Shown here one piece after another: positions 7,754 through 48,439 of a stretch of 59,827 nt of DNA. Where the stretch lies: assembly GCA_001600815.1 (NCBI GenBank), contig BCKZ01000003.1:372001-431827 (forward strand), written 5' to 3'. This stretch comes from Alloascoidea hylecoeti. Taxonomy: Eukaryota. How positions within the stretch are numbered: the first letter of the stretch is position 1; each line of letters begins with the position of its first letter. The notes under the pieces were generated by a model, which had not been told where the DNA came from, did not search any database, and was given only the letters and a program-made list of their open reading frames with translations. The position numbers and the translations under genes are program-made.

Positions 7754-10700
7754 TAGCACCCGAGAGAAACGCGCTAGTTAATTTTGACCTATATGTACCA
7801 TATAAATACGTGTCCCGATTCCCTACAACTTTAATAGAACTATTCAAATTCATTCATATAAATATTTTTAATTGCTGTTCACGTTTATTTAAGTGTCAGT
7901 TAAGCTTCTAAAATTTACCTAGCGCTATAATTCCGAACCCATAAATGGATAGATCAATACTCATTACAATCGCAATGAGACACATTAGAAATGAGAAAAT
8001 ATTAATATATTAATATATTAATTACCAATTTACCATGTAATAAACTGGGTATTGCAATTATGTTCAAATGAACAAATTAGTCAAAAGTAACATTTAATTG
8101 AAATTTTTTGAAAATGATATACAGCAGCTTTATTAGAGTAATTTACAAATAAATGTTTAAATAGTTTTAAGCCTATCATAAGAATAATATCTACAATCAG
8201 TCTAGGATCTTCTCGATAACTGCACATGCTGTTTAATTTAAAATTTTCGGCTTGCCGTATTTTACACATAACAATACAATTATAATTAAAATTATCATCA
8301 GCAGTATTAGTATTATATAATTATCATTATTTGCTGGATTATTATATTGACTATATAAGTGAATATATTAATCACCTATAAATCCTATAATTTACTGCAG
8401 ATAATATTAATTATTAATTTTGTAATTGAACAATCATATTCATGCAATCCATCATTATATATATTGTCATTGAATTAATACTATAAGACAGTTAAAAATA
8501 CATTCTTTCCATTAATTATGGTGAGCTTTTCGAACAATATGTTTGGTTTTCAGAAAAATATTTTTCGTACTTTTCAGAGAATTATGTCTATTTATTATGA
8601 TCTTTAAGAAAATATTTCATCGGTACGTTGAATATTATTTCGCATGCGTCTGGGAAACTATTTTGTGGGGTTTAGGTTTTTAAAGAAGTAGTTTACCCTG
8701 GCCAGTTTCAGGAATAAACTTTGGTGAGATTCACTAAAATATAATTATTTCGTCACTTTCAAGAAAGATAACCTCTGTTCTTACAGACAATGCCTCTGAT
8801 ACATACTTAGTACTTACTTACTTACGCCGTCCATTTTGAGGCCTTATTGGGGAATTGTAACCTTCGTATTCAGTGGCGGACGTTTGGTGGTAACAGGATC
8901 CGAATCTGGAAAAGTGCCATAAGATTAGTTTATACCACAGTCAGACCAAGCCATTAGACCTCAAAAAATTTGTAATATAGGGAATGATTGCTCTGTAATT
9001 TTGTAGTATAGTATGAGCTGGCATTTGGAAAGGTAATCATATTTCACTTTATAGTGCGGTATAGTGGTAGAGTGATTGGAGATCCTAATTCTCCATGCTT
9101 GGTAGAATGGCGGCCGTTCTGAATGTTACCGGTATAATGTTAACACTAAATACTATTTTATATGAACTAATAAATTCTCTAGAATTTACAGAACATTATG
9201 CTATATTTTGAGAACAGATTATGGTCTTATGGAGTACTTAATAGCTGTTAATAATATTGCTATTTTATTTGTACTGGTGACGGAAAAAGAATCCCAACTT
9301 TCACACACACATCATACATCCCGAATTAAATCTTTGAGAAGCATACCATATTAATTAAATTCTACTGAATTTATATATGTTTAATCAGCTTTATAACTAC
9401 CAATTAATATTTGGTCAAATTCACGTTTCTCACATATTATATTTGTTAAGCAATAATTAAAGAAACGGAGCATCATTTGAAGAATCCGATATACATCAGA
9501 ATTTGAACTAAATTCAATTTTAAAGTGGGATGTAAAATCTAGCATAGATAACTATCTTAACACAATGATTGGAGTCGAAGATATCAATTATTATCTACGT
9601 ATAAAGCTTATAAGGCAGTTGAATATTTTGTGTCACCGCTTACCATTTTAGTGATAAATTGAATTCGATGTGTAAACCCCAACCGAATTAAACGCCATTT
9701 AAAATTATGGTAAGGGATAATATATTGTTCCGATTGAAATTTCTTTGCATATTGTTCATGGAGAATATAAACTTAAGCTACCATTACTTGAAGGCTACAG
9801 TAATATTTAAACTTGTATCTTTAACATCAAGAGTTTAGCTATAGAGTAGTAATTTTAGATATTGGTGTACTTACACCACTCAAGTTCCTTTCTCCCTACT
9901 CCAAAAGACCTAGCACGTCTCGCAAAGTTAAAATAAGTTGATCTTCTTGGCTGGCATTGAACAACCCACTTTGCTTCTTTAAATTCTACCCCTTATTTCT
10001 TTTAATGGTGCCCTGTCTCTTTTGATCTCATTTGTTTATAAAGTTGTTTCAGATGAGAAGAGCATGCATATGTCATGAGGAATCTTTTCGGGCGTTGGTA
10101 TTTACAAGGTTATGGTTATACTATATCTAAATCTGTACAAAACTTACACAACTTTAAATTGTACTAATCGGATGTACGGCTGTTTTCCATCTGCATAACG
10201 CTTAAGCTTTGAGCTTAGAGGGTGAGCTTAAACTATATGGATATATAGTTAATTACATACTATAAGGATACCCAATTGCAACTTCAATAATACTTTTACC
10301 TCTCGAGAAAGATGTAACGCAACTTCAATTGAATTATTTTGATGTGTACGTATACAACAAGACTGTCAATAAACGTTTAGTAGATGTCAAAACTCAAGAT
10401 CTGGGGAATATGAAACATTGAATTGTGACATTCATCTCAAAGTAATCATACGAAGGCCCCCAATTAAAAAGATATCCTATACATTTACATTCATTACGAT
10501 CGTATTAGATATCCATCATATTTTGTGAGGCTGGAATTTCAATTTTAATTTAAATTACTAGCTGTAGCTCTTGAGTCTTAATAGAAAAACATTTTATGAA
10601 TAAGTAATCAATTAAGGCAGTAGAGAATCATCTATATTTACAATAATTTCTTGATAATTTAAACCTAATATATCACTCAAAGCTTAAGCAATGATCTCAG

Positions 10701-14136: not shown

Positions 14137-15507
14137 ATGCAGGCCCAACCACTCGTACATGAGGAAAGGCAGGTATCAATCCATGACACCCCGAGAAGAA
14201 CCAAACGCCAACAAAAATTCCTAGAAAGACAGCTTGAGAACAAGGCTGATAAGCGAAAAAGAGAGGAAAATATAAGGAGAGCAATAAATTCTGTACAGCG
14301 CGGTATGACACAGCAAGATGCTGCTGAAAAATACGGACTGGCTCGTACCACTTTGAGGGGACGTTTAAATGGTAGACAGTCGAGACAAAAAGTTTCCGAA
14401 GATAGGCAGCTGTTAACTGCGATGGAAGAAAAGGCATTGGCAGAATACATAGTAGCTCAAGAAGTTGAAGGCCATCAAATACGGCATGGTAGAATAAGAA
14501 CTATCGCATTAAAAATGTTAGAGAAACGGGCAGAACGGGATGGTACTAAAGATCACGTTCCGGTGTCCATAGGTCATAAATGGTTGTCTAGGTTTAAAAA
14601 GCGTCATTTTAAAGATGATGAGTCTATTTTTATTAATAGTGACGAATTCCAAGCAGGATCTACATTCGATCGTGAGGAATCTAGTGAAGATGAACTTTCT
14701 TTTGATGATGAAGAAGATATAGAAGAAAATGAATCAGTACAGCTACAGGCCTTCCACAATTCAACGAACTCCTCTCCATATTCCCAGGGTGGTCAAATAT
14801 CTCCTACAGACTATACAATTTTTCCCAGGACGAACTCTGTTGATGGATCTCCTGGAGGACCAGAAATGTCATTCAAATTTAAAGGTGTTATTGTTCCTAA
14901 CCATGAATGTCTTACAGAGAATTTGAACGTATTATCTTCAAACTACAAATCTACCTCTAAAAATAGAAAGATGATTGATTATGTTCGACAAGTGCATGAC
15001 TCTCTAGAAAAATTGGATGCAGAAAAACGAATTTTAATGCTGGTGAATGAGGAATTAAAAGAGGCTTCTCAGAATATTGAAAGGGAAAAGAATGAATTAA
15101 AGTCTAGTTTCATCGCATCTTCAATCAATGACTCTTCTATACTGAACAGGCAAGCCTTAAGATCTAATGACTATAGCTATACTACACATACCCACCCAGT
15201 TAAGACTGAAATTCCAGACTACCCAGGATTTAGATCTTCAAGCATCGATATAGGGGCTATTCCAGGCGTTTATGGGGCACACCAACCTGTGCATGTCCCT
15301 CAACCGTACTACCAATATTCTCAAGTACTTAATTCCCCGCAACAATATAGTTATGTGGTTCCTACATCATCGGCCGATCCCCAATCAGGTGGTCTAACCT
15401 ATTACAACGAAAACTATTCTTCAACAACATGGCATCCAACGACGGCTCCATATACAGATCAATCCGAGTTTGAACAAGCCACATATAATCTAAAAACATC
15501 ACGTTAA
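14137..15507 (+). CDS. HTH-psq + Tc5/CENP-B HTH DNA-binding protein; probable domesticated pogo/Fot1-derived transcription factor
   Basis: IRRAINSVQRGMTQQDAAEKYGLARTTLRGRLNG (psq-type HTH) and LLTAMEEKALAEYI...IGHKWLSRFKKRH (Tc5 HTH). These are followed by an acidic stretch, a coiled-coil and a Q/Y/P/S-rich tail. No DDE domain is visible. Confidence 0.8.
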   Translation: MQAQPLVHEERQVSIHDTPRRTKRQQKFLERQLENKADKRKREENIRRAINSVQRGMTQQDAAEKYGLARTTLRGRLNGRQSRQKVSEDRQLLTAMEEKALAEYIVAQEVEGHQIRHGRIRTIALKMLEKRAERDGTKDHVPVSIGHKWLSRFKKRHFKDDESIFINSDEFQAGSTFDREESSEDELSFDDEEDIEENESVQLQAFHNSTNSSPYSQGGQISPTDYTIFPRTNSVDGSPGGPEMSFKFKGVIVPNHECLTENLNVLSSNYKSTSKNRKMIDYVRQVHDSLEKLDAEKRILMLVNEELKEASQNIEREKNELKSSFIASSINDSSILNRQALRSNDYSYTTHTHPVKTEIPDYPGFRSSSIDIGAIPGVYGAHQPVHVPQPYYQYSQVLNSPQQYSYVVPTSSADPQSGGLTYYNENYSSTTWHPTTAPYTDQSEFEQATYNLKTSR

Positions 15508-20850: not shown

Positions 20851-22989
20851 GAAGAGCAGCGATAGAAAAAGCATAGTTGTAGCAATTGAAAATATGTAGT
20901 TTAGAAAAAAACAGATTCTTCTATATTTTACCTTTTATACAGGCAATAAATAAATTTGTTAACTTTTAAAAATATGTAGGTGCGTGATTACCACTGGTTG
21001 GTAGTGATGCTTTGATTATCTAAGTATATCTTGGTCTGTGCTGTACACTCGCACTTATAACTTACCCTATATAGTAATTCATCCATGCATCATCAAAGCC
21101 AACCTTATACCATATAACAGTGTCCCACTTCCTTAAGTGGCTAAGCTCATTTAGATATTATTCCATAATAAAACCTTAACTTTTTAAATACACATAGAAT
21201 GATTTCTAAAATTTTGTTAGGAGAGATTTCAGGTAATTCGAATTTTAGGAACAAATTGCTATGGGGCTCATATCAAATTTTCCCAACACCCAATTTTGAG
21301 ATCAATACAGCCAACCACCAACTACAATAAATTACATTTCTGAAGAAGTAAAAGGTTAGTCAAGTGGACAATAAAATAAACTATGCTCTATTTTTTTATT
21401 CGATTGCCTTGAGGCGGTGTGTTCAATTCACATGTGGACCTTTTCCCTCATTAGTTCAGCATAATATGCACCAAAATAATGCATAAATTACCTTATTAGG
21501 CAAAGTAACACTCATAACCGAAAGTTCAATCTTTGACTTCTTAACTATGATGAACTTTTCTCAGCACCAGTTTTTGTAAATAACTCAACCAGCCGCCAAC
21601 AACAATAAATGATAGTTCTGAAATTATAAGTAAATAAATAAATTGCCAATAGAATGAATTTAGTTCTTTTTTCTTATTTACTCAATGCATTACCGTATAC
21701 AATAGGTATTCATATGTGTATATCCGTATATAGTAAGAATGCATATGCACAGAGTCATGTTTGGAAGTTACCCGTCCATAGAGAAGTTTTTGATTTGTTC
21801 CTACGTACGTATATTATAACTTATAGGTGGAGAATATACCGGTAGATGTGCGTCACTATACTAACTAAGTGAATTGAAATATGTAATCTGAGTGAACGTA
21901 GCTTCTTAGTTGGCAAAACAAGCAGAAGGATTAATATACACACCATATAGAGATATCAACAATTCTTCCGGTGTAACACCTCCAACTAAGCTTAGCGATA
22001 TATTCAAAATTAGCTACTTCCTGGTCGCACTTTATCGTACTGGGCCTAGATACAATACCTTACTAGCCAAGAAGAATTAAGGCTTGTAATGAAGATGAGT
22101 TCATATATGTAATGAACCACTTGCGATCAGATCTAAGGGCTGTTCTTGGGGAAATCCACCTCAAAAGTCAATGGAATATAGATCTCAGGGATGCCATGTC
22201 TGAAACCAGTGCTGAACAGCCAGAATAGGGACAATTAATTATTATTAGATTGTAAACAGCTTAATGTTGAAGTTTTAAGTTTCATTTTTGATTTTTGATT
22301 TTTTTACATCAGCTCCTTGGTCACTGCTCTCAACATTAATGTTATCGATAGGACCGCGATTACAATATTACAATGATTATAAACATAAGTTTCTTTCAAG
22401 ACCTTTGGACGACTCGACACCCTAGGCTGAGATTCAAATTATATGATCCTCCCAAGCGCTGCCACGAAAATCTGCAATTAAATAAGAAGTTGGTTGAAGG
22501 TGATTCAATATTAATAGATCGTTCAATTTTGGTGTTTTTTTTTTTTTTGGTCATAATGGGTAACCAACGACTCCAAATAAAGAGTTCCATTGCATACGAA
22601 GTCGGACGTGAAGTCCTGCAACTATTAATAGAGTGGAAATTAATTAAAATAATGTCGGATAATTTGGTAGTGCTATGTGTAGCAATTAATTGGTCATAAG
22701 TTAACGTTAAATTGGAAACTTATTCAACTATTACGCCGGAAATTAATTAGCGCCATCTCATGAGATTATTTAGTGGTTTAATTGAGCTAATAATTAGTCA
22801 CTTATCCAAACATTTACTACGGTTATGTGCGAAATATAATTAGGAACTTGCTGAAAATTAACTAGCCTTATCTTTGAAAACTATTTAGCGTTACGTATGA
22901 GAAATAATTAACGTTAAAATCTTCACCCCTTTATGTTATCTGTTATCCTTTTCTTTGATTGGGCCTTCACTGAATTTATCTGTCTTTTT

Positions 22990-23330
22990 CTCACCTTCAT
23001 AACTTTGTATTTTATATTTTCCAATCCATTTCTGGATCATTAAAGAGATCCAAAATAGTTTTGGAGTGGAAGCTAAGACGATTTTTCCCTCCTCATCTTT
23101 TTTTCCATACTTGCTCTTTATCGAATTCAACATATCATTACGGTATTCTAATACTTCTTCTTGGATTCATTAATTTCAATTACCAACGGACGAGAAAATT
23201 GACTCACGACTCCTTTAGTGCCATGAGTATCATGAGAAAATTATGGATTTCCCATATTTGTGAATTAATAGTTAGTTGCATGTGATGATAGTGTAATGAT
23301 TCCATTTCCTTTCGGCCACTGGATGTACTA
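22990..23330 (-). mobile_element. Possible MULE transposase relic
   Basis: Minus-strand fragments MQL.., HKYGKSIIF / DTHGT and TPKLF / DLFNDPEM loosely match the MULE domain (Q...KYG..I..DxTHxT; PxxFMxDxxxxE). Needs several frameshifts. Confidence 0.3.
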
Positions 23331-24569
23331 AATTATAGACATATATCCTGCCACCAATCCTTCAAATTTCCACATCCTACGCTAGTGGCTATAAAAAAGT
23401 ACAACAACTGTCAATCTAGATTAATATAAATTGTTTATTATACTACTCAATTTTTACTTTTGTAAACTTTAATATTTAATTATGTAATATAGCGATATTT
23501 CTACATACATGTATTTATATTATATACAAGAATATCATCATAATTAGGTAGAGAGCTTTACACATTACTTATATCTCTGGGAATTTTGTTTAATAAACGT
23601 AGCATTAGAAATAATTAGAGCAACGTTTAATTTTCAATAAAACCATTCTATATATAAGTTTCTCCATCTTCACACGGCTGTCTGAAGAATTGTCAAAGGA
23701 AATAAGGTGTCCATTTCTGATCTTGATATCTCTTATATAAGGTACAGGAGAATTTGCTACTTTATATTATATGTCATGTTAGTTAGTAGTAACAACACAC
23801 AACACCATGTGTTTTATTCATATCCGGCATCCTGTTTACACCACCATCCCGCGAGACAGAGCTAAATCGTTCTTCTCTTCCCATTTAAGAATTCCAATGC
23901 TTCACTTGTAGGCCCATATATGTATACATTAACTCGCAGTAGGTGATACTAGGTTTTTGTTGAATGTAATGGGGTATATCACCACAACACAGCAAATGTT
24001 GCGATACTATTATATATTCTGCAGCTGTGAAGATCGTAGTATTATCAGAGAATTTATATATTAAGCTGATAAATAAATGTAACTTGAATTCCACTGTGAT
24101 AGTTAACCAATCATAACACAATATGAATATACATTTGAATATTACTGTATTCGTATTTATAGTTGTAGTCATTATAAATACAACACATCCTCTCTCTTTT
24201 TATCTCCTATTTTGATTTGTTCATGTCTCATCCGTCTTCTGACTAGTTCAGTTTCCTATGGGCTATTAAAAACCAATTGTGCAATCGAAATTCAGAGTTA
24301 AGGTACTTCTACCAAATAATTGATCTTTGAACAATTCCCCGTTTTTTAGTGTTCTGGTGATATTGATACTATGCTCAAAATACAAAAAGTGCCTATCAAT
24401 GCTAAGGGTTATTAATAATATTGACATCTATATTATCAAGGTGCCTGGTAGTCAAATCTATACCCATTTGGATTCAGCTCTCTCTTTCGAAACACAACTG
24501 AACTTCTCTCGGATTCCAAAACTCTCTCTCTCTTTTGTATAGAAAGGCTCTAATTAACCTTATTTCCAT

Positions 24570-24860
24570 AAAAATGATTTTGATAACGATTATGATGTTG
24601 ACAATCATCACAATTATAAAGATATAAACATGATGTTCACCATTATGAGGGTTAAGAGGACGAATAGGACGATATTGAATGTCGTTATAATGATTATTAT
24701 ATGATGATATAAATCAATTCTGACTACTCCTACTGGTTCAGTTGCATCAGTCGATTCAACTCCTTTGAATTCAGTTCTTCCTTTGTTGAGGGGCAATCCA
24801 TCTAGGAATAAAATGATTCATTCAATTACATTTTCTCACGATAATAAGTATATATTAATT
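24570..24860 (+). pseudogene. Degraded 5' copy of the acidic orphan gene (family of 37782-38495)
   Basis: aatgattttgataacgattatgat...cattatgaggg...actactcctactggttcagttgcatcagtcgattcaactcc aligns with 37840-38120. Upstream 24490-24525 aligns with 37705-37740. Confidence 0.7.
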
Positions 24861-24874
24861 CAGACGACAAAAGA

Positions 24875-25003
24875 TTCTCAGATTAAAGATTCACCTGTCA
24901 CGCTTAAGCTTATTGATTTTGGGCTCGCTGTTTTTAAAGATAAAGACCATGCTGAGTGAGTATCTTGTCTATAAATATCTGTAATTTAATAAAACAATAT
25001 AAT
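24875..25003 (+). pseudogene. Kinase fragment (subdomain VII) joined to a kinase 3' flank
   Basis: LKLIDFGLAVFKDKDH matches FIDFGLAVFEEEYH near 27423. The stretch 24970-25003 (tataaatatctgtaatttaataaaacaatataat) matches the reverse complement of about 25610-25643, downstream of the minus-strand kinase pseudogene. Confidence 0.65.
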
Positions 25004-25703
25004 GCAACTTATATATCTACATATGTACTACAAGTTATTGGTTGTTAGAGCGCAGAGCTAAACATGTGTTTTTGTTGATTTGGACATAGATTAGATAATG
25101 GAATATCTGAAATTTAAAGGAGTAGAAACGATGCAAAAAAACATAAAAAGGCACAGGCTCAGTTTCACGAAGGAGAATTAAACAGCTAAATTGAGAATTG
25201 TTGGAGCTTCCCAATATTGGTTGAAACTCCAGAGATGGGAAATTAAATTGTGGTACTATACACCACTAACTACGGATAATAAGATATTATATGGGTATAC
25301 AAAGTAAAGCATCTACATATTTTCTAATTGCAATCGATATCTTAACATATTTAATAAATGCTAACAATTTCAAAAAACTTACTTAACTATTACCAAATAT
25401 TTTGAGTTTCTTATTTTGCATTTATTACTTCGAATTCCAATAAACACGATTCGTATGAAAACCATTTCAACATTGAGATTGTATTATAAGGAATATAGGA
25501 TCTTTAAGTTTGCATATAACTCAAGACTATGTAGCTTTTCACTAACTTGATAAAATAGAATAGGTTAGAATTATGTGTCTCAACTATAGTTTAATAATAG
25601 TTGTCATTAATTATATTATTTTATTAAATTTCAGATATTTATATATTTTATATTAGTTAACTATATAGTTAATATATGATCTTTATTTGTTAATAGAATG
25701 ATC

Positions 25704-26505
25704 CTAAATTCCCACCACAAATCATTCATGCTGTAATGCTTCTTCTTCAATTATTCTTTTTGAAGGATCAATTGTTCTCCTCAATAAATCCTCCATTGAA
25801 TCTATAAATCTCATTTCAGATTGGTGTTTAGGGTTCCTTAGAAATGATGATTTTATTCCTTCAAATACTTCATCAAAATGTTTTTGTTTCAGAAAATCGT
25901 TGCTTAGACTCTGACGATGAATTTGTATTTGGGAAGTTTAATACATAGGGAAAAGTAGGTCCAGTCGCAGTTGGATGATAATCAAAGACAAAATACCGAG
26001 ATTCTTTCGATTTTATCTGGATTAAGTTTGTAATCATATTACGGATCTATTTTTTGAAAACCTTCTCTCAATCATCGCGAGATGCTTGTCAACTTCAACT
26101 CCATCTTCGTATATATCGAATAATTCTTTACCAGTGATTAGTTCTAACATCAATCATCCAATGGACCACATGTCACAAGGATAAGCCATCCTGTTCCAAG
26201 TATAACCTTTTTTATTGATATTAAAACCATTACTTACTACCATTTTAGGAATAAAGTTATATTGAGTAATTCTAAATAACCATTCAAGTAAAAATAAAAT
26301 GGTCTTTAATTTCCAAATAACCATTCTGTTTGGATTCATTATATTTTAAGAGTTTCAATAGGATTCTAATCTCTTTTAGCATGTTGATAATAGTAAACTG
26401 CGTATTATATATTTGTTGGGAATTCGATCGTAATTTTATTGATTTCAAAATTTTAATAGAGACATAGTCATTTTTCTCCCAATTCAAAGCTGTAATGATA
26501 CTAGT
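25704..26505 (-). pseudogene. LAMMER/Kns1-like (CLK family) protein kinase pseudogene, internally deleted
   Basis: YVSIKILKSI...KEIRILLKL...YLEIKDHF; YPCDMWSIG*LMLELITGKELF...KHLAMIER (the LAMMER signature EHLAMMER); RFIDSMEDLLRRTIDPSKRI..EALQHE*FVVGI*. Contains in-frame stops and frameshifts and lacks the HTD and DFG segments. Confidence 0.85.
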
Positions 26506-28295
26506 TAGTATTTAACAATAAAACTCCCATTCGTAAGTCGGATTAGGTATTGATAAGTATTCCACTTCTCCATCCTTTCTTTTCCACACTTTCAAGAGTT
26601 AAAATAACAATATATTATTTAGAGCCACAAACACATACACAATAAATTTGTTTCTAATTGGCAAAAATTAATCTCTGAGAATGGCTGCTGTTAGTAAAAA
26701 TTATTTGGACTTACTATTATTATCAGTCGCTATAAAGCTATTGCCAGAAAGTAATTGGCAATATAATGTGGCCACTGAGAAAGTCCAAATAAATGAACTT
26801 CCACGAATATTAACTGGTATCAGAACACTATATGACGCTCATTTTAATACCACGTACAATGATATAGAAGGACATGATATGATAGATATAGTTTTCGTAT
26901 TTGCACAAAAGTATGTTATCCAAGATACTCTAGGAAAAGGCTGCATATGATTTGGACAAATGAATATGTCTCGTTAAAAATTTCGAAATCGATACTTTCA
27001 AATTGCAATCACAATACACAGTTTACTATTCTCAATATCTTGAAAGAAATTAGAATATTGATGAAATTATCCCAAGATGGAAAATCCAAACAAAATGGGT
27101 GTTTGGAAATGAAAGATTATTGTCTATAATACAGTGTCTGCATTGTTTCGGACTTATTGGGGGAAAGCTTGGATACATATATGACCAATACAATTATACA
27201 ATATGTGTCTTAGTTGTTATATGGTATGGCTAGTGGTTATAACTTGTTAGAGCTCCAATCGATTATAGAGCAATTGATTGAATCAATTGCATTCATTCAC
27301 GATAGGGGAATAATTCATATTGATCTAAAGTTAGATAACATTCTACTAAAAAATTCAAATTCATTTTTTCCCATGACACTGGATTCACTAGAAGAAAACT
27401 TCCGATAGATTCATCGATCACATTTATTGATTTTGGTTTAGCCGTGTTTGAAGAAGAATACCATCCCCAGGCGGTGCCTGCTCAATCAAGCTTCTAAAGT
27501 TATACTTGGAACAGGATGGCTTACCCTTATGACATGTGGTGTGCATTGGATGCTTGATATGTTAGAACTAATTGTTCGGAATTGGATACCTCTTTTGTAT
27601 CTGGTGACATCGCTAAACAATAGTTATTATCTGTATATTATTATATATATATATATCTGTTCTATAAAAACAAGTAGAAATGGCTGACTATATAGTAAGT
27701 ACTAAACAAGATCTTCCACTACTACCTCAACTGATACAAAGAAGAAGGGGGAAAAAAAGGAAAAAATTAAAAAAATTAAATTTATTAATTAAATTATCTA
27801 CAATTTTTAAATTTCAAATTACAAATTTTCAAGTGTTAAAATGTCAAATCAAAACTTAATTTTATTTTTAGGATGAAATAATGCCTTTTTAATGGTTCAA
27901 TATCACATTTTTCTTTTTAAAAAAGCCTCAGTTCATAACTGATCACGACAAAAACGAACTTTCATAAAGATAATCTAATCCTTAATATCTAACACTAATC
28001 ACTGGTAAAGAATTATTCGATATATAGGAAGATGGAGTTAGAGTTTACAAGCATCTCGCGATGATCAAGAGAAGATTTTCAAAAAATAGATCCGTAATAT
28101 GATTACAAACTTGATCCAGATAAAATCGAAAGAATCTCGGTATTTTGTCTTTGATTATCATCCAACTGCGACTGGACCTACTTTTCCCTATGTATTAAAC
28201 TTCCCAAATACAAATTCATCGTCAGAGTCTAAGCAGTGATCTGAAATAAAATATCTTAATGAAGTATTTGAAGGAATAAAATTATCATTTTTAAG
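25837..28295. repeat. High-identity inverted repeat of ~300 bp: 25837-26142 vs 27994-28295
   Basis: The 242 bp core (25901-26142 vs 27994-28235) reads as a near-exact reverse complement with scattered substitutions, and similarity continues ~60 bp further. Confidence 0.9.
26681..28295 (+). pseudogene. LAMMER/Kns1-like kinase pseudogene, inverted relative to the 25704-26505 copy
   Basis: NDIEGH...FAQKYVIQDTLGKG; EYVSLKI...KEIRILMKL...CLEMKDY; CIVSDLLGESL; LIESIAFIHDRGIIHIDLKLDNILLKN; IDFGLAVF; VILGTGW; then LITGKELF...KHLAMIKR at 27995-28072. Multiple stops and frameshifts, with unrelated sequence at about 27580-27990. Confidence 0.85.
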
Positions 28296-28864
28296 CTGTT
28301 GTTGTTAGAGTGTTTGGCCCACAGTTTGGAACTATATTTATTATTAATTTTTGTCTGACCAGAAAATTGGAGAGCGTTTGGACTGAGTGCTAGAAATATG
28401 TCAGACACCTTTGAACTTGTGATATTTGCAGTTATGGTGGTTAATAATGATATTTGGTGAAGGAAAAACCATGTGTAAGTTTTATAAGTATAGTCTAGCT
28501 TAAAATAATAGGACAAACTGCACCTGCTGCTATTGCTGATCTGATATTGTAGATGTAAAATTTACTGACCATTTATCTGTTGACACATTAAGATTGAGTG
28601 TTCCAGCGAGGAAAGTGTCTGTGAAAGTTGTGATATGCACGTAGTAATCAAAGAAAGATCTGACGTAAGAAAAATCCTTGCTGATTAATTACTCTTATAT
28701 TTGTTAACCTCACATTGAGTGGCAATGACTAGTTGACATAGTTTTTCTCTTTGCAAGAGTAATAACAATGTAATAACTCTTAACAGCTAGGATGTGTCGT
28801 GGGTTTTTTAAGCTGATGAGAAGAAATTGATATGTGAATAGTGAGTATCGTATGTCTGTAAATA

Positions 28865-29495
28865 TAATTTTATACTCACAACGTATAATGATTTAATAAA
28901 TTTTACGAAAATAACAACTGAAAAGTATATTGAAGAAACTATATTAATCTAAATTAGATTTAAATGCTCAATAGAGTCATCATCGACCTCCTCATCAGTA
29001 GGAAAAGACGTTTACGAGCTTGACCTATTTGAAAAAGCAAATATTCTCAGATTCACAGTTAGGCACCATCAGGGTAAAATTTGGCAACTACTTTTCACCA
29101 GTTGAAATTAGTTCATTGAAAGCTGTTTTTTCTAATAATGATTCAAGCTCAAGGAACATCACTCTCATCATCATTAATGTTACCTCGAATAACTCTTCGA
29201 GAAAGTAAAGGATTTCCATCATTAATAGTGTATTCATATGTCAGACTTATTCTATGAATTGTTAATGGAAACGGGATTATATTAAATAGTTGAAGCGACT
29301 AATTCAACTAGCTCTGCATGAGTAACAGGAGTGATTGTATCATTATATCTATAAGTTTAAAACAGTATCCAATAATTTCATTATAATCTTTTTCATTCCC
29401 AAAACAGTTAAGATTATCTTAAAAATTGGGATGAATATCATTGCCATCATAATTATTAGCAATCGTTAACAAAATCTTTATCAATATAACGGGTG
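28865..29495 (-). pseudogene. Nearly full-length degraded copy of the acidic orphan gene plus its 3' flank
   Basis: Minus strand gives YIDKDFVND, ANNYDGNDIHPNF, ITPVTHAELVELVAST, YEYTINDGN.LLSRRVIRG, ELESLLEKTAFNELISTG, KVVAKFYPDG and LTVNLRIFAFS, colinear with the 237-aa ORF. The 3' flank matches about 36720-36800. Confidence 0.85.
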
Positions 29496-30743
29496 ATAAT
29501 AAGGAAAGGTTTGAAACTTGAGAGAAGTATACTTGCTTATAAGCTTAAGGGGTTTTATAAAGGGCAATCTGGACTTCTGTGAATTTAGAGATTTGACCAT
29601 CAGACTTCTTTTGTTAATATTGAAGTCAATATTATATATTAATAACCCATAACTTTAGCAGGCAGATTTATTTCTCTTGAAAAATTGATATCAATGTTAC
29701 TTGAATGAAAATAAGAAATAAAACAAGCTCTGCTAAAAATAAGGAGATTGTTCAAAGATCATCATTTGGCAAAACTACCCCAACATTGGAGTAGAAAAAT
29801 ACTGGAAATTCCCCAATAAATAGCTGTGCATTAATTGAAATATTCTATGTTGTGATACAATGAAAATAGAAGAACAAAAGAAATAGAAAGGATTCTAAAA
29901 AAATGACAACCCATAGTAACTTATGCGTACATGTAACTTATAAATACAAATACAGCAATATAATATGCACATGGACAAACACAAACTTATCCAAAACTCT
30001 TGATATTTGATTGATGGTATCATGTAATCATCCACCTCAATATATCTACAAAAAGTTCAAAAACACAGTGACTTTTATTAGGCAGATATATGAACTTTAG
30101 TATTATAATGAGAAGCGGAATTCACCAATTATGATTATTAGTAGATTTTAAGACGAGCAAACTTGTCTCCCAAATTTTGGCCTACACACACGAACACTTC
30201 GAAAAATTTCTTCCGATGTGGGGGATTAGATATTGATCAGATTATGATCACGAGAAACTATGTATAGCATTCCAGAGCTGTTATCTTTAATTTTTAGAAA
30301 TGTGTCTTTTATGGTTAACGCTGAAATTGGAATTTTTCACGTCATTTTTTTTATGAATTGTTCCCTTCATGATAAGATAACGTTTTGAATTATAATGAAG
30401 ATATACTAAACCAATCTACATACTTTAAAAGTGAATAAAGAATTTTTTTAAAAAAAATTATTTTTGTTATTTATGAACAAGTATTTAATATTTTGGATAT
30501 TCTCAATAATTTAATGATATACTACTAATTTTAGGACAAAGAAAGTTGAAATCACGACTTGCGTGATGTTGTGTGGTGAAAGTTTAAGTTTGGTTATAAA
30601 CTTAAAAGTTATATGATTACAGAAGATTGTTCAATGTTATACCTAAGTACTAAAGAAGTGAAAGTGTAAGATTAAAATAATTGGTGCTTACAAGCTATAA
30701 GTTAGATTGAAAGATGTATCAAATTTCTTTTTCAAAAGAAAAT

Positions 30744-32584
30744 TCAATCATCTTCTTCAACTTCATCAATTGAATTAATTAGTTTTAACGCCATGTGTTT
30801 AACTTCATCTTCTAAATCCATAACATCTAAATAATCAACAAATTGAAAAATAATATCATGAAATCCAAATTCTAAACAATTTAAAATTAAATCAATAATT
30901 TTTAAATTAATTTTATTTTTTTCATTTTTGATTAATAATTCTTTTGATTTAATATCACTCCAATGAATTTCATTTATAAAATATGATGAAGATTTAAATT
31001 TTTTTAAAATAATTATAAAATTTTTAAAATTTTTTAAAATAAATGATATATCATTCTGTAAAATACCAAATTTATCTTCATCATATGATCTAATAGTTAA
31101 AAAAGATAATGATAAAATTGCTAAATTTAAAATTTTAAAATTTCTTTTTTTGTTGGTATTATTAATTTTTTTTTTAATATTTCTTTGAATTGTTTTTCTA
31201 AATAATATACCAATTGAAGATTTTAAAAAATTATTAATTAAATTTGAATTTAAATAATAATTATTTATATATTTTTTAAAAATTTGAAAAGAATTAATTA
31301 AATAATTTAAAACAAATTTTGATTTAATTGCTTTTGGATCTTGAAATTGAATTAATATTTTATGAGTTGTTTCTGATTTTTCAGGTAAAAAAATATTTTT
31401 TTTAATTGGATTATTTAATTCAGTATTTTGTTTATTATTAATATTTTGTAAATTTTTTATTGATTTGTTATTATTAATTTTATTTGATTTGATTGATTTT
31501 TCAATTTCATTTTTAGAACCATCAATTACATCAATACATTCCTTTAGAATACTTTTCCAAATAGTAATTGGTCTTTCAATATCTTTAAATATGGTAATTC
31601 TTCTTTTTTTATCATTTATTGAAATATAATATAATTCTTGAAATGCCATTAGTCTAGTGAAAGGATTTTTATAATTTTTCAGACCAGTTATTAAAGTACC
31701 ATTTGGATCATTTGATTTTGAAGTTAATAATTTACCATGATGCAAACAGCCCATTGATATGTATGCAGTGAAACTTAAATTTGTAAATTCCCATAACCAA
31801 ATCAGTAAAATTGAAGATGATAATTGGAATATAAAAGTGTTGAATTGAATTGGAGAAGATGACAGATAGTTGCTATTAGGTAATTTGAAAAAGAGTCTTA
31901 AGATGCAAAGAGATTTGGACCGAATTGATTTTCTATTAACTAAATAAAGTATTGGGAAAGTCAGGTTGATAAATAGGGATACTGCCAATGCACGTTTTGA
32001 AACATGAAATATGTTTGATTGGAGTAAGAATTTTGGGCTTGTCTACGGAGATGTTAGGATCTGATGAAGATGAATATATGAATATGTATACTTACCGCAG
32101 GGGTTAAAGCGAAAGGTAAAGTGTTGAAATCCAGAAACACGTGCAGCAACGAAAACACCAAAGGGACGTAGAACACGAAACAGAAGAAGTAAACGCACTG
32201 CTCCCCAGCAACAGTGAACGCCAGGCCGGTTGGAATGGAGCAGTAGAAAACCGCCGAAGAAAAGACCAGGGAACACAGAGCCCACAGAAACTGCTTGCTG
32301 GCGACAGAATGGCACATCTGCGAAAACAGCGTCGGCCGGGTGTCTTGGGAGACCCGAATGAACGACTTCCGGTACACGAGCACCGCAAACAGGGCCGCGA
32401 AAATGGGGGGGGTCCGCAGCACCCAGGTGCACCCGCGCCCACACAGCACGCCGACCCCAAGCGACACCGCCAAAAGCATCCGGCACAGACGCGAAAACCG
32501 GACCGACAGAACCTCTGCCAGCACCGAGCTGTACTCGGCCGCCGGCATTCTGTGAGCCGCTGGTCGTGGGTGTCTTCGTTGCAT
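30744..32584 (-). CDS. NDC1: Nucleoporin/SPB membrane protein Ndc1; 2 exons (32584-32096, 32042-30744)
   Basis: A 53-nt intron (GTAAGT...CCTAAC...TAG) joins a multi-TM exon in frame to SMGCLHHGKLLTSKSNDPNGTLITGLK...AFQELYYIS...RRITIF and SYDEDKFGILQ. The start could instead be the Met at 32548. Confidence 0.85.
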
Positions 32585-32633
32585 TTGGGTGTTTCAGCTT
32601 TCACGAAAAGAGTTTGGGAAACTTAAATCCCGG

Positions 32634-32692
32634 CGTGTCACATGACGCCGCGTGTCACATGACCGCCGCACGTGCCTCGCTCTGCGACGCGT
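32634..32692. promoter_or_regulatory. NDC1/RAD52 divergent promoter motif cluster: 2x GTCACATG, CACGTG and an MCB (ACGCGT)
   Basis: cgtgtcacatgac repeats at 32634 and 32651; CACGTG at 32669-32674; ACGCGT at 32687-32692. Confidence 0.6.
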
Positions 32693-32748
32693 GGATATTA
32701 CTAAAATATATATACAAATACAAATACACATACAAATACACCCAAAAC

Positions 32749-34440
32749 ATGCAAAACTGGCTCCCGCACGAAATATCAAACATCGAGAGGCTGCTGGTCC
32801 GTGGGCTGGGCCCGGAGTACATATCCCAGCGCCCGGCCCCAGGTGGCGGAAGAGTGCCTTACTTGGAAGGACGTAAAGCCATAGAACTGGCAAACGATCT
32901 ATTTGGTTTCAATGGCTGGAGATCCGAAGTCAGAAACGTCCAAGTCGATTATTTCGATGACCACGATAAACAAGGTCCATACGATTTGGGTTTATCTGCT
33001 ACTGTTCGTGTTACTTTAAAAGATGGCTCGTATCATGAAGATATCGGCTATGCCCATGCTGAAAATGTTGATACTCGGTTTATGGCTTTTGAAAAATGTA
33101 AGAAAGAAGCTGTTACTGATGGAATGAAAAGAGCGCTACGATGTTTTGGTAATGTTTTAGGGAATTGTCTTTATAATCGGAATTTCACAAAAGAAGTATT
33201 AAAGATGCCTTGTTCTTCTGTATGTCTCTTCTTTTACTTCTGTTATTTGTGATTTGGTTCTAACCCTTCACTTTTTCTTCTTCTTTTCTTGTAGCATAAA
33301 ATCGATCTTGATAATTTATATCGTCAGCCTGAACTTGCATCTAACCCCCACTCACATTTATCCTCAATAACATCCACAACATCCACAACATCAACATCTT
33401 CATCAACAATTCAAAACATTCAAAATACAAACTCAAATTTAAAAACAAATCAAACCACTCATATCTCAAAATCTATGAAATCTCCATCTCCTGAATCCAT
33501 TCAAGATAATTTCGATTATGATTTTAGAAGTGAAGATATACTAGATCCTGAATTTGATCTAGCGGGAATAGATGAATATGATGAAGAATTATCAATTGAA
33601 AATGAACTACCTAGTCAAATATCTAAAATATCACAACCAACAACTAATAATGATAGCATACAAATAACAGAGAATCATAATCAAAACATACTCCCATCAA
33701 TAAAAACCCCAATAAAACCACCAATAGAAATAGTTACACCAATACGATTTTTCAGTGCAAGAGCAGCAGAAGCAGTACAAAACAATTCTCCAATACCATC
33801 TAAAAATTTATTTAATCCATCTTTTCAAAGTCCTTCAATGCGTAGAACTTTAGATCAATCAAAGTCTGCACCTATTAAAAGAACTCAAATTGAATCATTA
33901 TTACCTTCTCAATCTCCATCTCAATTAACAACAACATCACCATCTATTGTAAGAACATTAGATCAATCAAAATCTGCCCCTGTTAAAAAATCTCAAGTTG
34001 AATCATTATCATTATCATTATCATTAGCTACTCAATCTCAATCAAAAAATATAATATCTCCATCTCCATCATCTGTTTCAACTAAACCATTACCATCATC
34101 AAACTCATCCACCGGTACAAGCACTACACCTACAACTACGAACACAACTACAAATGATATTTCTCCTAGTTCCCAAGCCCCACAACTTTCAACCAAAAAC
34201 AACATAACAAAGAGTCAAGACCATGTTCCATCATTTGATAATCCAAGATTAACACCAAATAGAATGATAGGAATGCCTCCAAATCGTTCAAGAAGAGGAA
34301 GATATAATAATGGTGGTCCATTAAATGAAATTAATCCTTCAATAATTAATAAATTTATTACAAAAAAGAATAATTTTAAATTGAATGGAAAGAATAATAA
34401 TGAAATAATTGAACCAGAAACTAAAAAGGCAAGAATTTAA
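32749..34440 (+). CDS. RAD52: Recombination mediator Rad52; 2 exons (32749-33219, 33295-34440)
   Basis: LGPEYISQRPAPGGGRVPYLEG...ANDLFGFNGW...YHEDIGY...AFEKCKKEAVTDGMKRALRCFGNVLGNCLY. The intron GTATGT...CTAAC...TAG keeps the frame. The C-terminus has FFSARAAEAVQ...FNPSFQSPSMRRTLDQSKS. Confidence 0.95.
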
Positions 34441-34659
34441 AATGATATAAGTATGAGTATGTGAGTTTTGAATTGTGATGAAAGTGCTTGGGAAATTAAA
34501 TTATAACTTTTTGCATATTTTTTGCATATAATATAATAAAAAAAAAAACACCCTATATAAATATTCATTTCTAGATATTTGATTTTTAATTATAAAACTT
34601 GATTATATATACTATTAAAGCTATTATAAAATTTGTATTACCTTAAATTTTTAAATATG

Positions 34660-34717
34660 TTTTGATTTTGATTTTGATTTTGATTTTGATTTTGATTTTG
34701 ATTTTGATTTTGATTTT
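34660..34717. repeat. (TTTTGA)n hexanucleotide microsatellite
   Basis: About nine consecutive ttttga units upstream of UBA3. Confidence 0.9.
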
Positions 34718-36361: not shown

Positions 36362-36806
36362 AAATTAATTAATGTCAACGTTGTTTGTTGTTGATGATGG
36401 CTCAGTTGTTTATACTTATATAAAGATATATTCTAGGAATTGATAATATAAATTAATCTTAAGATAATTATAGGAAATTTGCTAGATATATGCTCAACAG
36501 TTGCTTCATAGAGTGGAAACTATATTGATATCACATACTGTAAACAATAGTATGTAGATTAAAGTACAAAATATTATATAAGTCTGAAAGCAGTGACAAA
36601 TATTATGACATCAATAACAACTTTGATATAAATTTAAAGGCTGGTAATAAAAGCTTTTGTTCCATCAAAGTCTTCCGATCCATAGATTTCTCAAGTGACA
36701 GATATACTTATCTACATGTAATTTTATACACTTACACGGTATATTGATTATTAAAGGTTATAAAAATAACAATTTCAAATTATATTAAAGAAGTCCTATT
36801 TATAAT

Positions 36807-37520
36807 TTATATATCTAAATTAAATGTAAGTTCTCGTTCAATGGATTCATCAGGGGATAAATACGAAATTAATCCCATTGAAAAAGGGAATATTTTCAAT
36901 NTAACAGTTATTGACCCATTATAACCATTAGGATAAAATTTAGAAACTACATTTTGAAAATCACCAGTCGAAATTTCTTCTTCAAGAGCTACTTTTTCTA
37001 TCAACGATTCTAGTTCCTTGAACTCGGAATCACTCTCATTATTGGTATCACCAGGAGTGACTCTTCGAGAAAGTTTAGTATTGTCATCTANTATAGTGTA
37101 CTCATATGGCACAGTTACTTTGCGATTGTTGGTGGAAGTAGGGGTATTGAAAAGGATATCGACATCAGCGTCGATAGGAACTGAAGGAGTTGAAACAACT
37201 GATTCAACTGAATCAACAGTAATAACCGGAGTAACTGGAGTGATGGGAGTAACTGGAGTGATGGGAGTAACTGGTGTTGGTTTAATATCATTATATTTAT
37301 AATTATTACGATAATGATATCCAATATCGTAGTTCTCGTTGTCGTCCTCATCATCTTCATAGTAGTCAAGGTCACCCTCATAATTACGATGAATGTCATA
37401 ATCATCATAATTAGCAGAATCATTATCAAAATCATTATCAAAATCATTATCAAAATCATTATTGATATAAGATTCCGGTTCAGTTGAGCTTTTTTGTGCG
37501 GTAGGAAGTCTGTAAAACAT
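36807..37520 (-). CDS. Unknown 237-aa acidic protein, left palindrome copy
   Basis: Open ATG-to-stop ORF with two N codons: D/N/Y-rich N-terminus, TP(V/I) repeats and a ~100-aa globular-looking C-terminus. Amino-acid conservation with the 28865-29495 copy supports coding status. Confidence 0.6.
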   Translation of the reverse strand: MFYRLPTAQKSSTEPESYINNDFDNDFDNDFDNDSANYDDYDIHRNYEGDLDYYEDDEDDNENYDIGYHYRNNYKYNDIKPTPVTPITPVTPITPVTPVITVDSVESVVSTPSVPIDADVDILFNTPTSTNNRKVTVPYEYTIXDDNTKLSRRVTPGDTNNESDSEFKELESLIEKVALEEEISTGDFQNVVSKFYPNGYNGSITVXLKIFPFSMGLISYLSPDESIERELTFNLDI

Positions 37521-37626
37521 AATGGATGATATTATTATGATCCAATATTGAGTGATGATGAAGAGTTGAACATTCTGATAGAAGTTTAGTTGTATTTAAC
37601 AAATTGAAATTTTAATTTGAGTCCTG

Positions 37627-37675
37627 CACGTGATGATANNNNANTTNNTNNNANNAANTNNNNTATCATCACGTG
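37627..37675. promoter_or_regulatory. Pair of Cbf1/CDEI-type ATCACGTG sites flanking the palindrome centre
   Basis: CACGTG at 37627-37632 and 37670-37675, each in ATCACGTG context, about 107 bp upstream of each ATG. Confidence 0.5.
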
Positions 37676-37781
37676 CAGGACTCAAATTAAAATTTCAATT
37701 TGTTAAATACAACTAAACTTCTATCAGAATGTTCAACTCTTCATCATCACTCAATATTGGATCATAATAATATCATCCATT

Positions 37782-38495
37782 ATGTTTTACAGACTTCCTA
37801 CCGCACAAAAAAGCTCAACTGAACCGGAATCTTATATCAATAATGATTTTGATAATGATTTTGATAATGATTTTGATAATGATTCTGCTAATTATGATGA
37901 TTATGACATTCATCGTAATTATGAGGGTGACCTTGACTACTATGAAGATGATGAGGACGACAACGAGAACTACGATATTGGATATCATTATCGTAATAAT
38001 TATAAATATAATGATATTAAACCAACACCAGTTACTCCCATCACTCCAGTTACTCCCATCACTCCAGTTACTCCGGTTATTACTGTTGATTCAGTTGAAT
38101 CAGTTGTTTCAACTCCTTCAGTTCCTATCGACGCTGATGTCGATATCCTTTTCAATACCCCTACTTCCACCAACAATCGCAAAGTAACTGTGCCATATGA
38201 GTACACTATANTAGATGACAATACTAAACTTTCTCGAAGAGTCACTCCTGGTGATACCAATAATGAGAGTGATTCCGAGTTCAAGGAACTAGAATCGTTG
38301 ATAGAAAAAGTAGCTCTTGAAGAAGAAATTTCGACTGGTGATTTTCAAAATGTAGTTTCTAAATTTTATCCTAATGGTTATAATGGGTCAATAACTGTTA
38401 NATTGAAAATATTCCCTTTTTCAATGGGATTAATTTCGTATTTATCCCCTGATGAATCCATTGAACGAGAACTTACATTTAATTTAGATATATAA
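37782..38495 (+). CDS. Unknown 237-aa acidic protein, right palindrome copy
   Basis: Same translation as 36807-37520. Confidence 0.6.
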   Translation: MFYRLPTAQKSSTEPESYINNDFDNDFDNDFDNDSANYDDYDIHRNYEGDLDYYEDDEDDNENYDIGYHYRNNYKYNDIKPTPVTPITPVTPITPVTPVITVDSVESVVSTPSVPIDADVDILFNTPTSTNNRKVTVPYEYTIXDDNTKLSRRVTPGDTNNESDSEFKELESLIEKVALEEEISTGDFQNVVSKFYPNGYNGSITVXLKIFPFSMGLISYLSPDESIERELTFNLDI

Positions 38496-39025
38496 ATTAT
38501 AAATAGGACTTCTTTAATATAATTTGAAATTGTTATTTTTATAACCTTTAATAATCAATATACCGTGTAAGCGTAAACAAGAATAAAACTATAAATGCCC
38601 TATATGCATATACGAGTGACAATTTTGTAAGCAACAGAGACTCAAGTTCAAACGGATGGAAGAAGTGCTGAAAAGTTTGTGAAAATGGTGAGAGTACAAC
38701 TACTAAATAGCTAAATAATTATAATTTGTAGATGAGGGAAAGTAATAGGACATTGTATCGAAATTTAAATTGGAGGAAATTCTGAAAAAAAAGCTAAGAA
38801 AGCAGAAAAGATGAACCTTGGGTATTCTTGAGCTAACTCAATGGGTTCATTTGCCTATATATAAGACTTTATAGCAATCTATATACATGTATGTTTACTA
38901 TGGTCGAGATAATAATTGTAGGGGACACCAGTTGATTCAACATCAATCTGTTGTTATTGAGATTCTAATTGTTTAATAATTATTTCTTGACAGGCAATTG
39001 CAACTTCAACGTGAGTTCTGATAAC

Positions 39026-48287: not shown

Positions 48288-48439
48288 AAACAACTACCAA
48301 CACAGGGACAACATTGAAACAAATTGGTGAATTTCAGGTTCCACAGCTGTATGTAGATATAAGAAATGGACGTACTACATATCTCGAATTTGTTTCCAAG
48401 GCTAAGTTCAGCAATGATTTATTACAAAAGTTGAGAACA
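48288..48439 (+). repeat. 152-bp direct duplicate of coding segment 47910-48061
   Basis: aaacaactaccaacacaggg...caaaagttgagaaca appears identical at both positions. Confidence 0.92.

Follow-up and report, generated by a model that had tools for sequence, protein, structure and literature searches.

Among meiotic drivers and spore killers, wtf in fission yeast and Spok in Podospora are single genes, each of which encodes both a poison and its antidote. Mammalian sex-chromosome palindromes have arms that are more than 99% alike and carry working genes (PMC8981503), and in yeast, fold-back (hairpin-primed) inverted duplications are head-to-head with a short centre (PMC10622511). LAMMER/CLK protein kinases bear the motif EHLAMMERILG in a C-lobe helix; according to the text of a survey (PMC12795684), most Ascomycota possess one CLK, duplicates of it in fungi commonly diverge or become pseudogenes, and among its sampled species no CLK duplication is listed in budding yeasts. 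The locus described here, found in a window of 59,827 nt (the whole stretch of DNA that was analysed), is of a kind already known, namely the decayed inverted duplicate with pseudogene pairs, of which it is a new instance; it opens no long-standing question. It resembles duplicated non-processed pseudogene pairs in decayed inverted segmental duplications or palindromes with arm-to-arm gene conversion: it has the mirror order, a mosaic identity with a much younger patch, disabling mutations that both arms have in this patch, and uneven decay outside it. Unlike in the mammalian sex-chromosome palindromes, conversion here would have been local, and the genes are dead. A head-to-head arrangement around a short centre, as described for the yeast fold-back duplications, occurs twice at the locus, once in the old duplication centred near 26.6 kb and once in the perfect palindrome centred at 37651, and it is this geometry that suggests a fold-back mechanism.

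Positions 24124-29954 of the window are a degenerate inverted duplication of about 5.8 kb in an AT-rich, yeast-like genome. Self-comparison of the window by blastn and repeat finding gave six collinear mirror-image matches with identities from 63% to 96%; from the centre outwards these are 26303-26476 vs 27116-26955 (71%, E 4e-18), 26137-26209 vs 27572-27496 (88%), 25837-26142 vs 28295-27994 (93.5% over 306 nt, E 6e-130, with a 247-nt core of 96%), 24627-24761 vs 29420-29288 (63%), 24390-24462 vs 29664-29586 (73%) and 24302-24349 vs 29779-29733 (79%). The sequence-only reading had claimed that some 6 kb hide a degenerate inverted duplication, with a kinase and a convergent acidic orphan gene in both arms; the analysis confirms this, and the kinase and orphan coordinates given there proved correct to within tens of bases. 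That reading had also aligned the non-coding flanks. The left outer flank (24124..24462, upstream of the left orphan) mirrors the right one (29586..29954) in three collinear inverted matches, and each alignment was scored against 300 dinucleotide shuffles. The pair 24352-24462 vs 29705-29586 scored 38 (shuffles: mean 14.1, maximum 21; 25 real AT-rich control segments: maximum 19), the pair 24297-24349 vs 29784-29733 scored 27 (shuffle maximum 17), and the outermost pair, 24124-24217 vs 29954-29859, reached a marginal 21 (shuffle maximum 20). In all three cases no shuffle (0/300) scored as high, and the flank similarity is accordingly significant, marginally so for the outermost pair. Beyond the flanks, 23000-24040 and 30110-30740 show no homology, the observed score being equalled in 223 of 300 shuffles. 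The arms are reverse-complementary, collinear, alike beyond chance and seen in independent data, as is characteristic of an inverted segmental duplication.

All four gene copies in the arms, two kinases and two orphans, are pseudogenes, and neither kinase copy has an intact reading frame. The right kinase pseudogene (26681..28295, + strand) contains several frameshifts, in-frame stops and a 422-bp insertion, and the frames +0, +2, +1, +2, +1, +0 and +2 are needed to track its kinase motifs, among which DFG (IDFGLAVF) and a GW/YPCDMWSIG-like stretch are readable. A eukaryotic protein kinase catalytic domain was recognised in its ORF 27214-27405 (Pfam Pkinase, PF00069: E 3.1e-9, 37.0 bits, cutoff 31.7). 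A phmmer search of the PDB with the right kinase identified CLK2 as the best match (E 4.7e-6), followed by GSK3 (3.5e-5) and CLK3 (3.8e-5), which would place the kinase closer to CLK than to GSK3 by about one order of magnitude and makes the CLK assignment a weak one; in the PDB, searches with four further fragments of the kinase returned no kinase. The left kinase pseudogene (25722..26570, - strand) consists of the N-lobe followed by the C-lobe, without the catalytic middle; it shows stops and frame changes in six-frame reading, matches the right copy in an arm-to-arm tblastx comparison, and has KHLAMIERRF and the C-terminal ...DPSKRIIEEEALQHE. HLAM and ER are retained in the degenerate LAMMER motif: compared with EHLAMMERILG, the left KHLAMIERRFS agrees at 6 of 11 positions and the right KHLAMIKRRFS at 5 of 11, with the tail entering a frameshift. 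The HLAMxER signature reported from the letters alone can be found in both arms, as KHLAMIERRF in the left copy and KHLAMIKRRF in the right, and the description of the kinase as CLK/LAMMER-like agrees with the Pfam match above cutoff, with CLK2 and CLK3 as best solved relatives and with the degenerate motif. In these solved matches and this motif the copies resemble the LAMMER/CLK kinases (Kns1, Lkh1) and their lineage-specific fungal duplicates; unlike working members of the family, both are broken, and their decay is like that reported for fungal CLK duplicates in PMC12795684. A word-based search of 5.8 billion proteins with a 153-aa read-through and an 89-aa N-terminal ORF found no kinase relatives.

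A piece of the missing middle of the left kinase was found 1.3 kb away. This displaced, inverted segment at 24831..24975 (+ strand) encodes the pre-DFG insert and DFG (LKLIDFGLAVF), from exactly the middle that is absent from the left copy; ORF 24708-24956 matches the right-arm ORF 27339-27494 in BLASTP (E 9e-7, 16/42 identical), and 24910-24975 is 68% identical to 27424-27489 in blastn. This segment had been taken as part of a left orphan at 24570-24860: the portion 24570-24765 is indeed orphan-like, and from 24831 on the sequence is kinase. Arm-to-arm comparison of the N-lobe, over 54 aligned codons only, gave dN 0.23 and dS 1.14 (saturated), i.e. dN/dS of about 0.2, with identities of 74%, 85% and 59% at codon positions 1, 2 and 3 (chi-square p 0.0099). 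This ratio suggests that both kinase copies probably worked formerly.

The C-lobe would have a different history from the rest of the arms. A recently homogenised patch of about 380 nt (25837..26209 on the left; 27496-27572 and 28000-28295 on the right) comprises 350 matches, 29 mismatches and 12 gap columns, and it is more alike than both the N-lobe (71% identity; Fisher p 3.6e-10) and the flanks (p 2.2e-6). Two 1-nt frameshifts lie within it and are common to both arms. A patch so much closer in sequence than its surroundings, and with two common frameshifts, would point to arm-to-arm gene conversion after the death of the kinases, a reading based on the heterogeneity of identity alone.

The orphan partners belong to an acidic family of 200-240 aa, in which the N-terminus is disordered and rich in D, N and Y and the last 100 aa or so form a conserved domain. 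The left orphan pseudogene (24570..24765, + strand) retains about 65 codons of the N-terminal part: its nucleotide matches to the intact copy at 37782-38495 (24573-24701 vs 37878-38004, 65%, E 4e-9; 24725-24765 vs 38078-38118, 80%; blastn) are accompanied by a marginal protein-level score (family HMM E about 3). The right orphan pseudogene (28859..29498, - strand) is full length with its 3' flank and is readily recognised (family HMM 38.5 bits, E 3.2e-11; tblastn E 5e-8 with in-frame stops); its alignment to the intact gene contains gap runs of 4, 2, 7, 10, 1, 1 and 11 nt, which break the frame. An isolated relic at 23413..23483 (+ strand) derives from the 3' flank of a further, lost copy: it is 76% identical to 28955-28885 (E 8e-11) and 72% identical to 38499-38559, just beyond the stop of an intact gene, and a search of its surroundings with the family HMM gave no trace of coding sequence. 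Two identical, intact 237-aa genes lie 8 kb from the duplication, head-to-head in the left (36807..37520, - strand) and right (37782..38495, + strand) arms of a perfect palindrome (36722-38580, 929-nt arms, 100%), with open frames and family HMM scores of 350 bits; the arms have about twofold depth in all four runs. The palindrome (36.7-38.6 kb) is younger than the duplication and has no kinase: tblastx with both kinase arms found no kinase remnant at E<1 in 36-40.6 kb, and a Pfam scan of eight ORFs in 38.5-40.5 kb found no kinase match. The family HMM detected no further copies in the remainder of the window. The locus has two intact genes, one full pseudogene and two fragments, and the earlier suggestion of birth and death holds here for the orphan family.

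When 1.84 billion representatives were searched with a profile, four relatives of the orphan were identified (P0001, P0004, P0005 and P0006). A fifth candidate, P0007 (E 4e-5), has eight copies of a bacterial-type repeat and was rejected, its similarity to the motif VTYTYTI being judged fortuitous. Metagenome scans found no relatives, and P0001 had no usable match in the ESM Atlas. None of the five family members compared with Pfam at E up to 1 was assigned to a family, apart from two single-member noise matches. AlphaFold2 models had mean pLDDT of 44.9 and 46.6, and with these low-pLDDT models neither VIA-align (best Z 4.1) nor Foldseek (best E 1.0) matched a known fold, the C-terminal domain included. 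Likewise, Pfam, VIA-align and Foldseek revealed no sequence or fold similarity to meiotic drivers. The locus draws attention to a very small protein family, restricted to one lineage, of which two intact copies stand in a palindrome.

These observations are probably explained by a single ancient inverted segmental duplication, arranged head-to-head and now in ruins, which carried a lineage-specific CLK/LAMMER-like kinase and a convergent acidic orphan. The duplication would have produced two kinase genes facing outward from the centre near 26.6 kb, with the orphans at the outer ends, and purifying selection would then have kept both kinase copies for long. We infer that the kinases were subsequently inactivated and that a C-lobe tract of about 380 nt, with its two 1-nt frameshifts, was copied between the arms by gene conversion; afterwards further stops and indels would have accumulated, and the catalytic middle of the left kinase would have been lost from its place and relocated in inverted orientation. 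Truncation of the left orphan and the solo-LTR-like insertion into the right kinase would also be late events. Since a third fragment of the kinase and a third relic of the orphan exist, there was more than one rearrangement, so that a single duplication is a minimum count. As it stands, the region from 24 to 30 kb encodes no working protein; both arms hold dead kinase and orphan copies and are an ordinary gene graveyard with no working device. The locus is a tidy natural example of the death of an inverted duplicate gene pair and would illustrate the spread of a disabling frameshift from one palindrome arm to the other by gene conversion. It also suggests that a budding-yeast-like lineage briefly had extra CLK/LAMMER-like kinases. 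For annotation, the arm copies should be recorded as pseudogenes and not as split genes.

A more eventful history can be imagined, in which the acidic family is young, turns over fast within one yeast lineage by way of head-to-head palindromes, and was once co-selected with the LAMMER-derived kinase in a pair that has since dissolved. The two would have been kept for long as a kinase-substrate or conflict pair (the dN/dS of about 0.2 would date from that time), after which the acidic gene went on alone. We regard this as improbable, and we give very low credence to the related proposal of the sequence-only reading, that kinase and acidic protein are a toxin-antidote, meiotic-drive or kinase-substrate pair that spreads as a unit, undergoes birth and death, and has left spent copies here. 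Such a selfish or conflict module would suit the extremely narrow distribution of the orphan family (four relatives and one spurious repeat protein in the profile search), its many copies of mixed age at one locus, their palindromic amplification, the gene-poor surroundings with transposon scars and the former selection on both kinase copies; lineage restriction, multiple copies, fast turnover and many pseudogenes are likewise features of wtf and Spok. Unlike in those systems, the kinase partners here are dead and are absent beside the intact orphan copies, and since all four arm copies are dead, no toxin-antidote, drive or kinase-substrate module operates at the duplication. In the window, kinase and orphan stand together nowhere but in the two arms of a single duplication, and no locus has both partners intact. 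The claim that they travel as a unit duplicated repeatedly finds no support: within the window the intact orphans have no kinase neighbour or remnant, which is the lack of linkage elsewhere that was named beforehand as telling against the claim, and one old inverted duplication therefore explains the pairing. Against a module also stand the orphan's want of a Pfam family or fold match and, as weak evidence, the absence of an intact close kinase relative from the word-based search. Orphans and kinases would have had no functional tie.

It is similarly improbable that the inverted repeat is a structural element of a regional centromere or chromatin domain in which the pseudogenes are passengers. 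The repeat lies in a 26-kb gene-poor stretch (4.5-30.7 kb) where only one ORF of at least 90 aa has a Pfam family (14137-15507, CENP-B/pogo-like HTH_psq and HTH_Tnp_Tc5), accompanied by a faint RVT_1 fragment (5049-5240, E 0.041) and the solo-LTR-like insert, and in some yeast centromeres inverted repeats flank a core. However, the identity of the arms is mostly 63-79%, without homogenisation, the arms are plainly decayed coding sequence, and the remainder of the gene desert shares no other repeats with them. A non-coding role of the gene-poor region and its inverted repeats, be it RNA, chromatin or centromere-linked, could still exist beside the gene graveyard that we favour. That the duplication arose in assembly, through a fold-back chimera or the collapse of a repeat, as the 21 N in the window and the perfect palindrome with N at its centre 8 kb away might suggest, is almost certainly wrong, because the arms, whose divergence is not expected of a chimera, are covered by Logan contigs in four runs of three independent studies (22558-25930, 26113-27598 and 28206-34651), with a strain that differs, from a wood-decay metagenome, among the sources, and a 242-nt unitig common to both arms has raised depth.

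The inactivated right kinase would also record the arrival of a mobile element. The 422-bp insert (27573..27994) begins with TGTTCGG at 27573 and ends with ...TCTAACA at 27994, and these TG...CA ends are flanked by a 5-bp direct repeat, CTAAT (27568-27572 and 27995-27999), as expected of a solo LTR with its target-site duplication; the left arm preserves the empty site. Within the window there is no second copy of the insert and no full-length element matching it was seen. Its part 27598-27994 is a repeat with no spanning contig among those listed, and in each of the runs X1-X3 two to three contigs whose upstream sequence differs join it at 27569-27575; depth is raised. Adjacent to the displaced kinase segment lies a 674-bp segment (24970..25643), in whose ORFs a Pfam scan gave no match and which is bounded by 34-nt inverted repeats (24970-25003 and 25610-25643) that are 94% identical.

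Self-comparison of the window revealed six reverse-complement matches, all collinear, between the two arms of a mirror-image duplication (24124-29954), each of which pairs a kinase with a convergent orphan gene. One joins 25837-26142 of the left arm to 28295-27994 of the right (93.5% over 306 nt, E 6e-130, with a 247-nt core at 96%); the others join 26137-26209 to 27572-27496 (88%), 26303-26476 to 27116-26955 (71%), 24627-24761 to 29420-29288 (63%), 24390-24462 to 29664-29586 (73%) and 24302-24349 to 29779-29733 (79%). The flanks were compared with 300 dinucleotide shuffles per test, the sequence-only reading of this locus having proposed an AT-matched shuffle control. The inner flank match scored 38 (shuffle mean 14.1, maximum 21; maximum 19 among 25 real AT-rich segments) and the middle one 27 (shuffle maximum 17), while the outermost (24140 vs 29960) is marginal, at 21 against a shuffle maximum of 20, yet collinear. 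Outward of 24.1 and 29.96 kb no arm similarity was found, the observed score being reached by 223 of 300 shuffles. Logan contigs from four sequencing runs (three studies) cover 22558-25930, 26113-27598 and 28206-34651, and a 242-nt unitig common to both arms shows raised depth (e.g. 101 vs 61 in run X2); since independent contigs cover the structure and the shared unitig is over-represented, an assembly artefact is ruled out. Thus, the hidden inverted duplication is real, as the six collinear matches, the flank scores above all shuffles and the independent contigs concur. One of the four runs, a wood-decay metagenome, has 18 listed single-letter differences within 24040-30110, and the duplication occurs in more than one strain. 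The locus is a further case of a kind already known: a decayed inverted segmental duplication whose arms hold non-processed pseudogenes, with one local patch of probable gene conversion; our literature search found no description of it or of the orphan family, which is weak evidence of absence.

The right kinase pseudogene (26681-28295, + strand) begins with an open 89-codon N-terminal ORF, past which motifs can be traced only via repeated frame changes and stop read-through. It retains the N-lobe motifs VSLK and LKEIRIL, the catalytic loop IIHIDLKLDNILL, IDFGLAVF, VILGTGW followed by AYPYDMW, LITGKELFDI*EDG..KHLAMIKRRF and IRNMITN..KSKESRYF. Because Pfam Pkinase matches its catalytic-loop ORF above cutoff, a 153-aa read-through ranks CLK2 (E 4.7e-6) and CLK3 before GSK3 (3.5e-5) among solved structures, and a degenerate LAMMER motif is present (reference motif from PMC12795684), the CLK/LAMMER origin proposed earlier is the best reading of the sequence, with a thin margin over alternatives. 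That source reports just one CLK in the majority of Ascomycota, and a tendency of duplicates in fungi towards divergence or pseudogenisation (PMC12795684). The right C-lobe is split by a 422-bp solo-LTR-like insert (27573-27994), which starts with TG, ends with CA and has 5-bp CTAAT on either side; its empty site is visible in the left arm, and in three of the runs (X1-X3) two to three contigs per run join at 27569-27575 with different upstream sequence. From its termini, the CTAAT duplication, the empty left site and the other contig flanks, the insert looks like a dispersed solo LTR. The window holds no second copy, and loose contig ends point to further copies elsewhere in the genome.

In the left kinase pseudogene (25722 to ~26570, - strand) both the N- and the C-lobe survive, the C-terminal DPSKRIIEEEALQHE included, and ~290 nt between them are missing, a gap that covers the hinge, catalytic loop and DFG. 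A displaced piece of this middle lies at 24831-24975 in opposite orientation, fused to the left orphan stub, and matches the right-arm ORF 27339-27494 (BLASTP E 9e-7). Its blastn identity to the right arm (68%) is low, as in the old parts of the arms, so it would be explained more easily by relocation inside the left arm than by recent copying out of the right one.

Between the kinase N-lobes, 54 aligned codons give dN 0.23 and dS 1.14, a small sample with saturated dS, and identities at the three codon positions are 74%, 85% and 59% (chi-square p 0.0099). Within the limits of that sample and saturation, these values suggest that both copies were coding and constrained through most of their divergence. 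The C-lobe patch aligns with 350 matches against 29 mismatches and 12 gap columns, and ~150 bases in a row are identical. Its similarity between the arms far exceeds that of the N-lobe (Fisher p 3.6e-10) and that of the flanks (p 2.2e-6). Two 1-nt frameshifts in the patch are common to both arms, one between GTGW and AYPxDMW and the other in the A6 run after RRFSK, and a TAG is private to the right arm. In the simplest account of the kinase arms, an old inverted duplication led to a long phase with functional copies; once the kinases had been inactivated, gene conversion carried a tract that held its frameshifts by then from one arm to the other, before more private decay and the LTR insertion.

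The right orphan pseudogene (28859-29498, - strand) is full length (family HMM 38.5 bits, E 3.2e-11) and contains in-frame stops and gap runs of 4, 2, 7, 10, 1, 1 and 11 nt relative to the intact gene, with nearly even codon-position identity (71%, 70%, 65%) and dN/dS ~0.46. The left orphan is an N-terminal stub only (24570-24765), and 23413-23483 holds a separate relic, from the 3' flank of an orphan. Two identical intact 237-aa genes stand head-to-head in a perfect palindrome (36722-38580; arms 36722-37650 and 37652-38580, 929 nt each), which has N runs at its centre (37639-37663) and single Ns at mirrored positions (36901/38401 and 37091/38211), and whose arm depth is ~2x that of its neighbours in all four runs. 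The strain in the metagenome run carries an 18-nt deletion at 37228, within the TPVTPI repeat. The protein is acidic (48 D+E vs 16 K+R); its first ~135 residues are predicted to be disordered, and the ~100 C-terminal residues are modelled with modest confidence (pLDDT 60-76) as a small alpha/beta domain. Among 1.84 billion representatives searched with a profile, the only relatives were P0001, P0004 and P0005 (E <=1e-40) and the fragment P0006 (2e-9), none of them named; one further match, a repeat protein, was set aside as spurious. The protein matched no Pfam family and no known fold (Z 4.1 at best, Foldseek E >=1), and metagenome scans yielded no relatives. In each of the four runs, one single-depth contig has short stretches of similarity to the pseudogene as well as to the intact gene, and we therefore read it as a sign of at least one additional paralogue elsewhere in the genome. 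A (TTTTGA)n microsatellite at 34660-34715, FDFDFD in one frame, cross-matches the orphans' NDFDND-coding repeat, probably a low-complexity coincidence.

The sequence-only reading also took kinase and orphan for a travelling unit, repeatedly duplicated. We found no kinase remnant beside the intact orphan pair. On the left of the pair, a ThiF/UBA3-like gene ends at a distance of ~700 bp; the 2 kb on its right hold nothing recognisable. Since one inverted duplication suffices, no kinase accompanies the intact orphans and the arm copies are all dead, the claim is unsupported. Nor is there positive evidence here for a toxin-antidote, drive or kinase-substrate module, which we consider very improbable, retaining it at all because the orphan family is narrow, multi-copy and palindromic.

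The window is AT-rich (G+C ~30%), and its gene content reads like that of a budding-yeast-type eukaryote, with recognisable genes for mitochondrial IF2, Ndc1, Rad52, a ThiF/UBA3-like E1, an EamA transporter and an M16 insulinase. A 26-kb stretch (4500-30700) is gene-poor. Its sole family-bearing ORF of >=90 aa encodes an HTH_psq/HTH_Tnp_Tc5 protein (14137-15507), CENP-B/pogo-like and with raised local G+C. A Pfam scan of all 140 stop-to-stop ORFs of >=45 aa in 4.5-30.7 kb and 38.5-40.6 kb gave as notable matches only Pkinase (27214-27405) and a faint RVT_1 fragment (5049-5240, E 0.041). The stretch may represent pericentromeric DNA or an accumulation of dead transposons; a centromere-linked structural role is a second minor alternative, to which we give hardly any weight. 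A 164-nt inverted match (7632-7788 vs 55876-55721, 73%, E 2e-15) links it with a site 48 kb away. A ~1-kb G+C-rich island (32000-33000; 52% vs 20-32% in its surroundings) spans the divergent 5' parts of NDC1 and RAD52. The NDC1 ORF (32054-32584, - strand) matches Ndc1_Nup profile positions 2-160, and the adjoining 3' part of the gene has ~20-25% G+C; biased gene conversion at the divergent promoter or a foreign origin are possibilities for the island. Finally, a 152-nt direct repeat with 100% identity (47910-48061 and 48288-48439, 378 nt apart) adjoins or overlaps the ORF 47519-48181.
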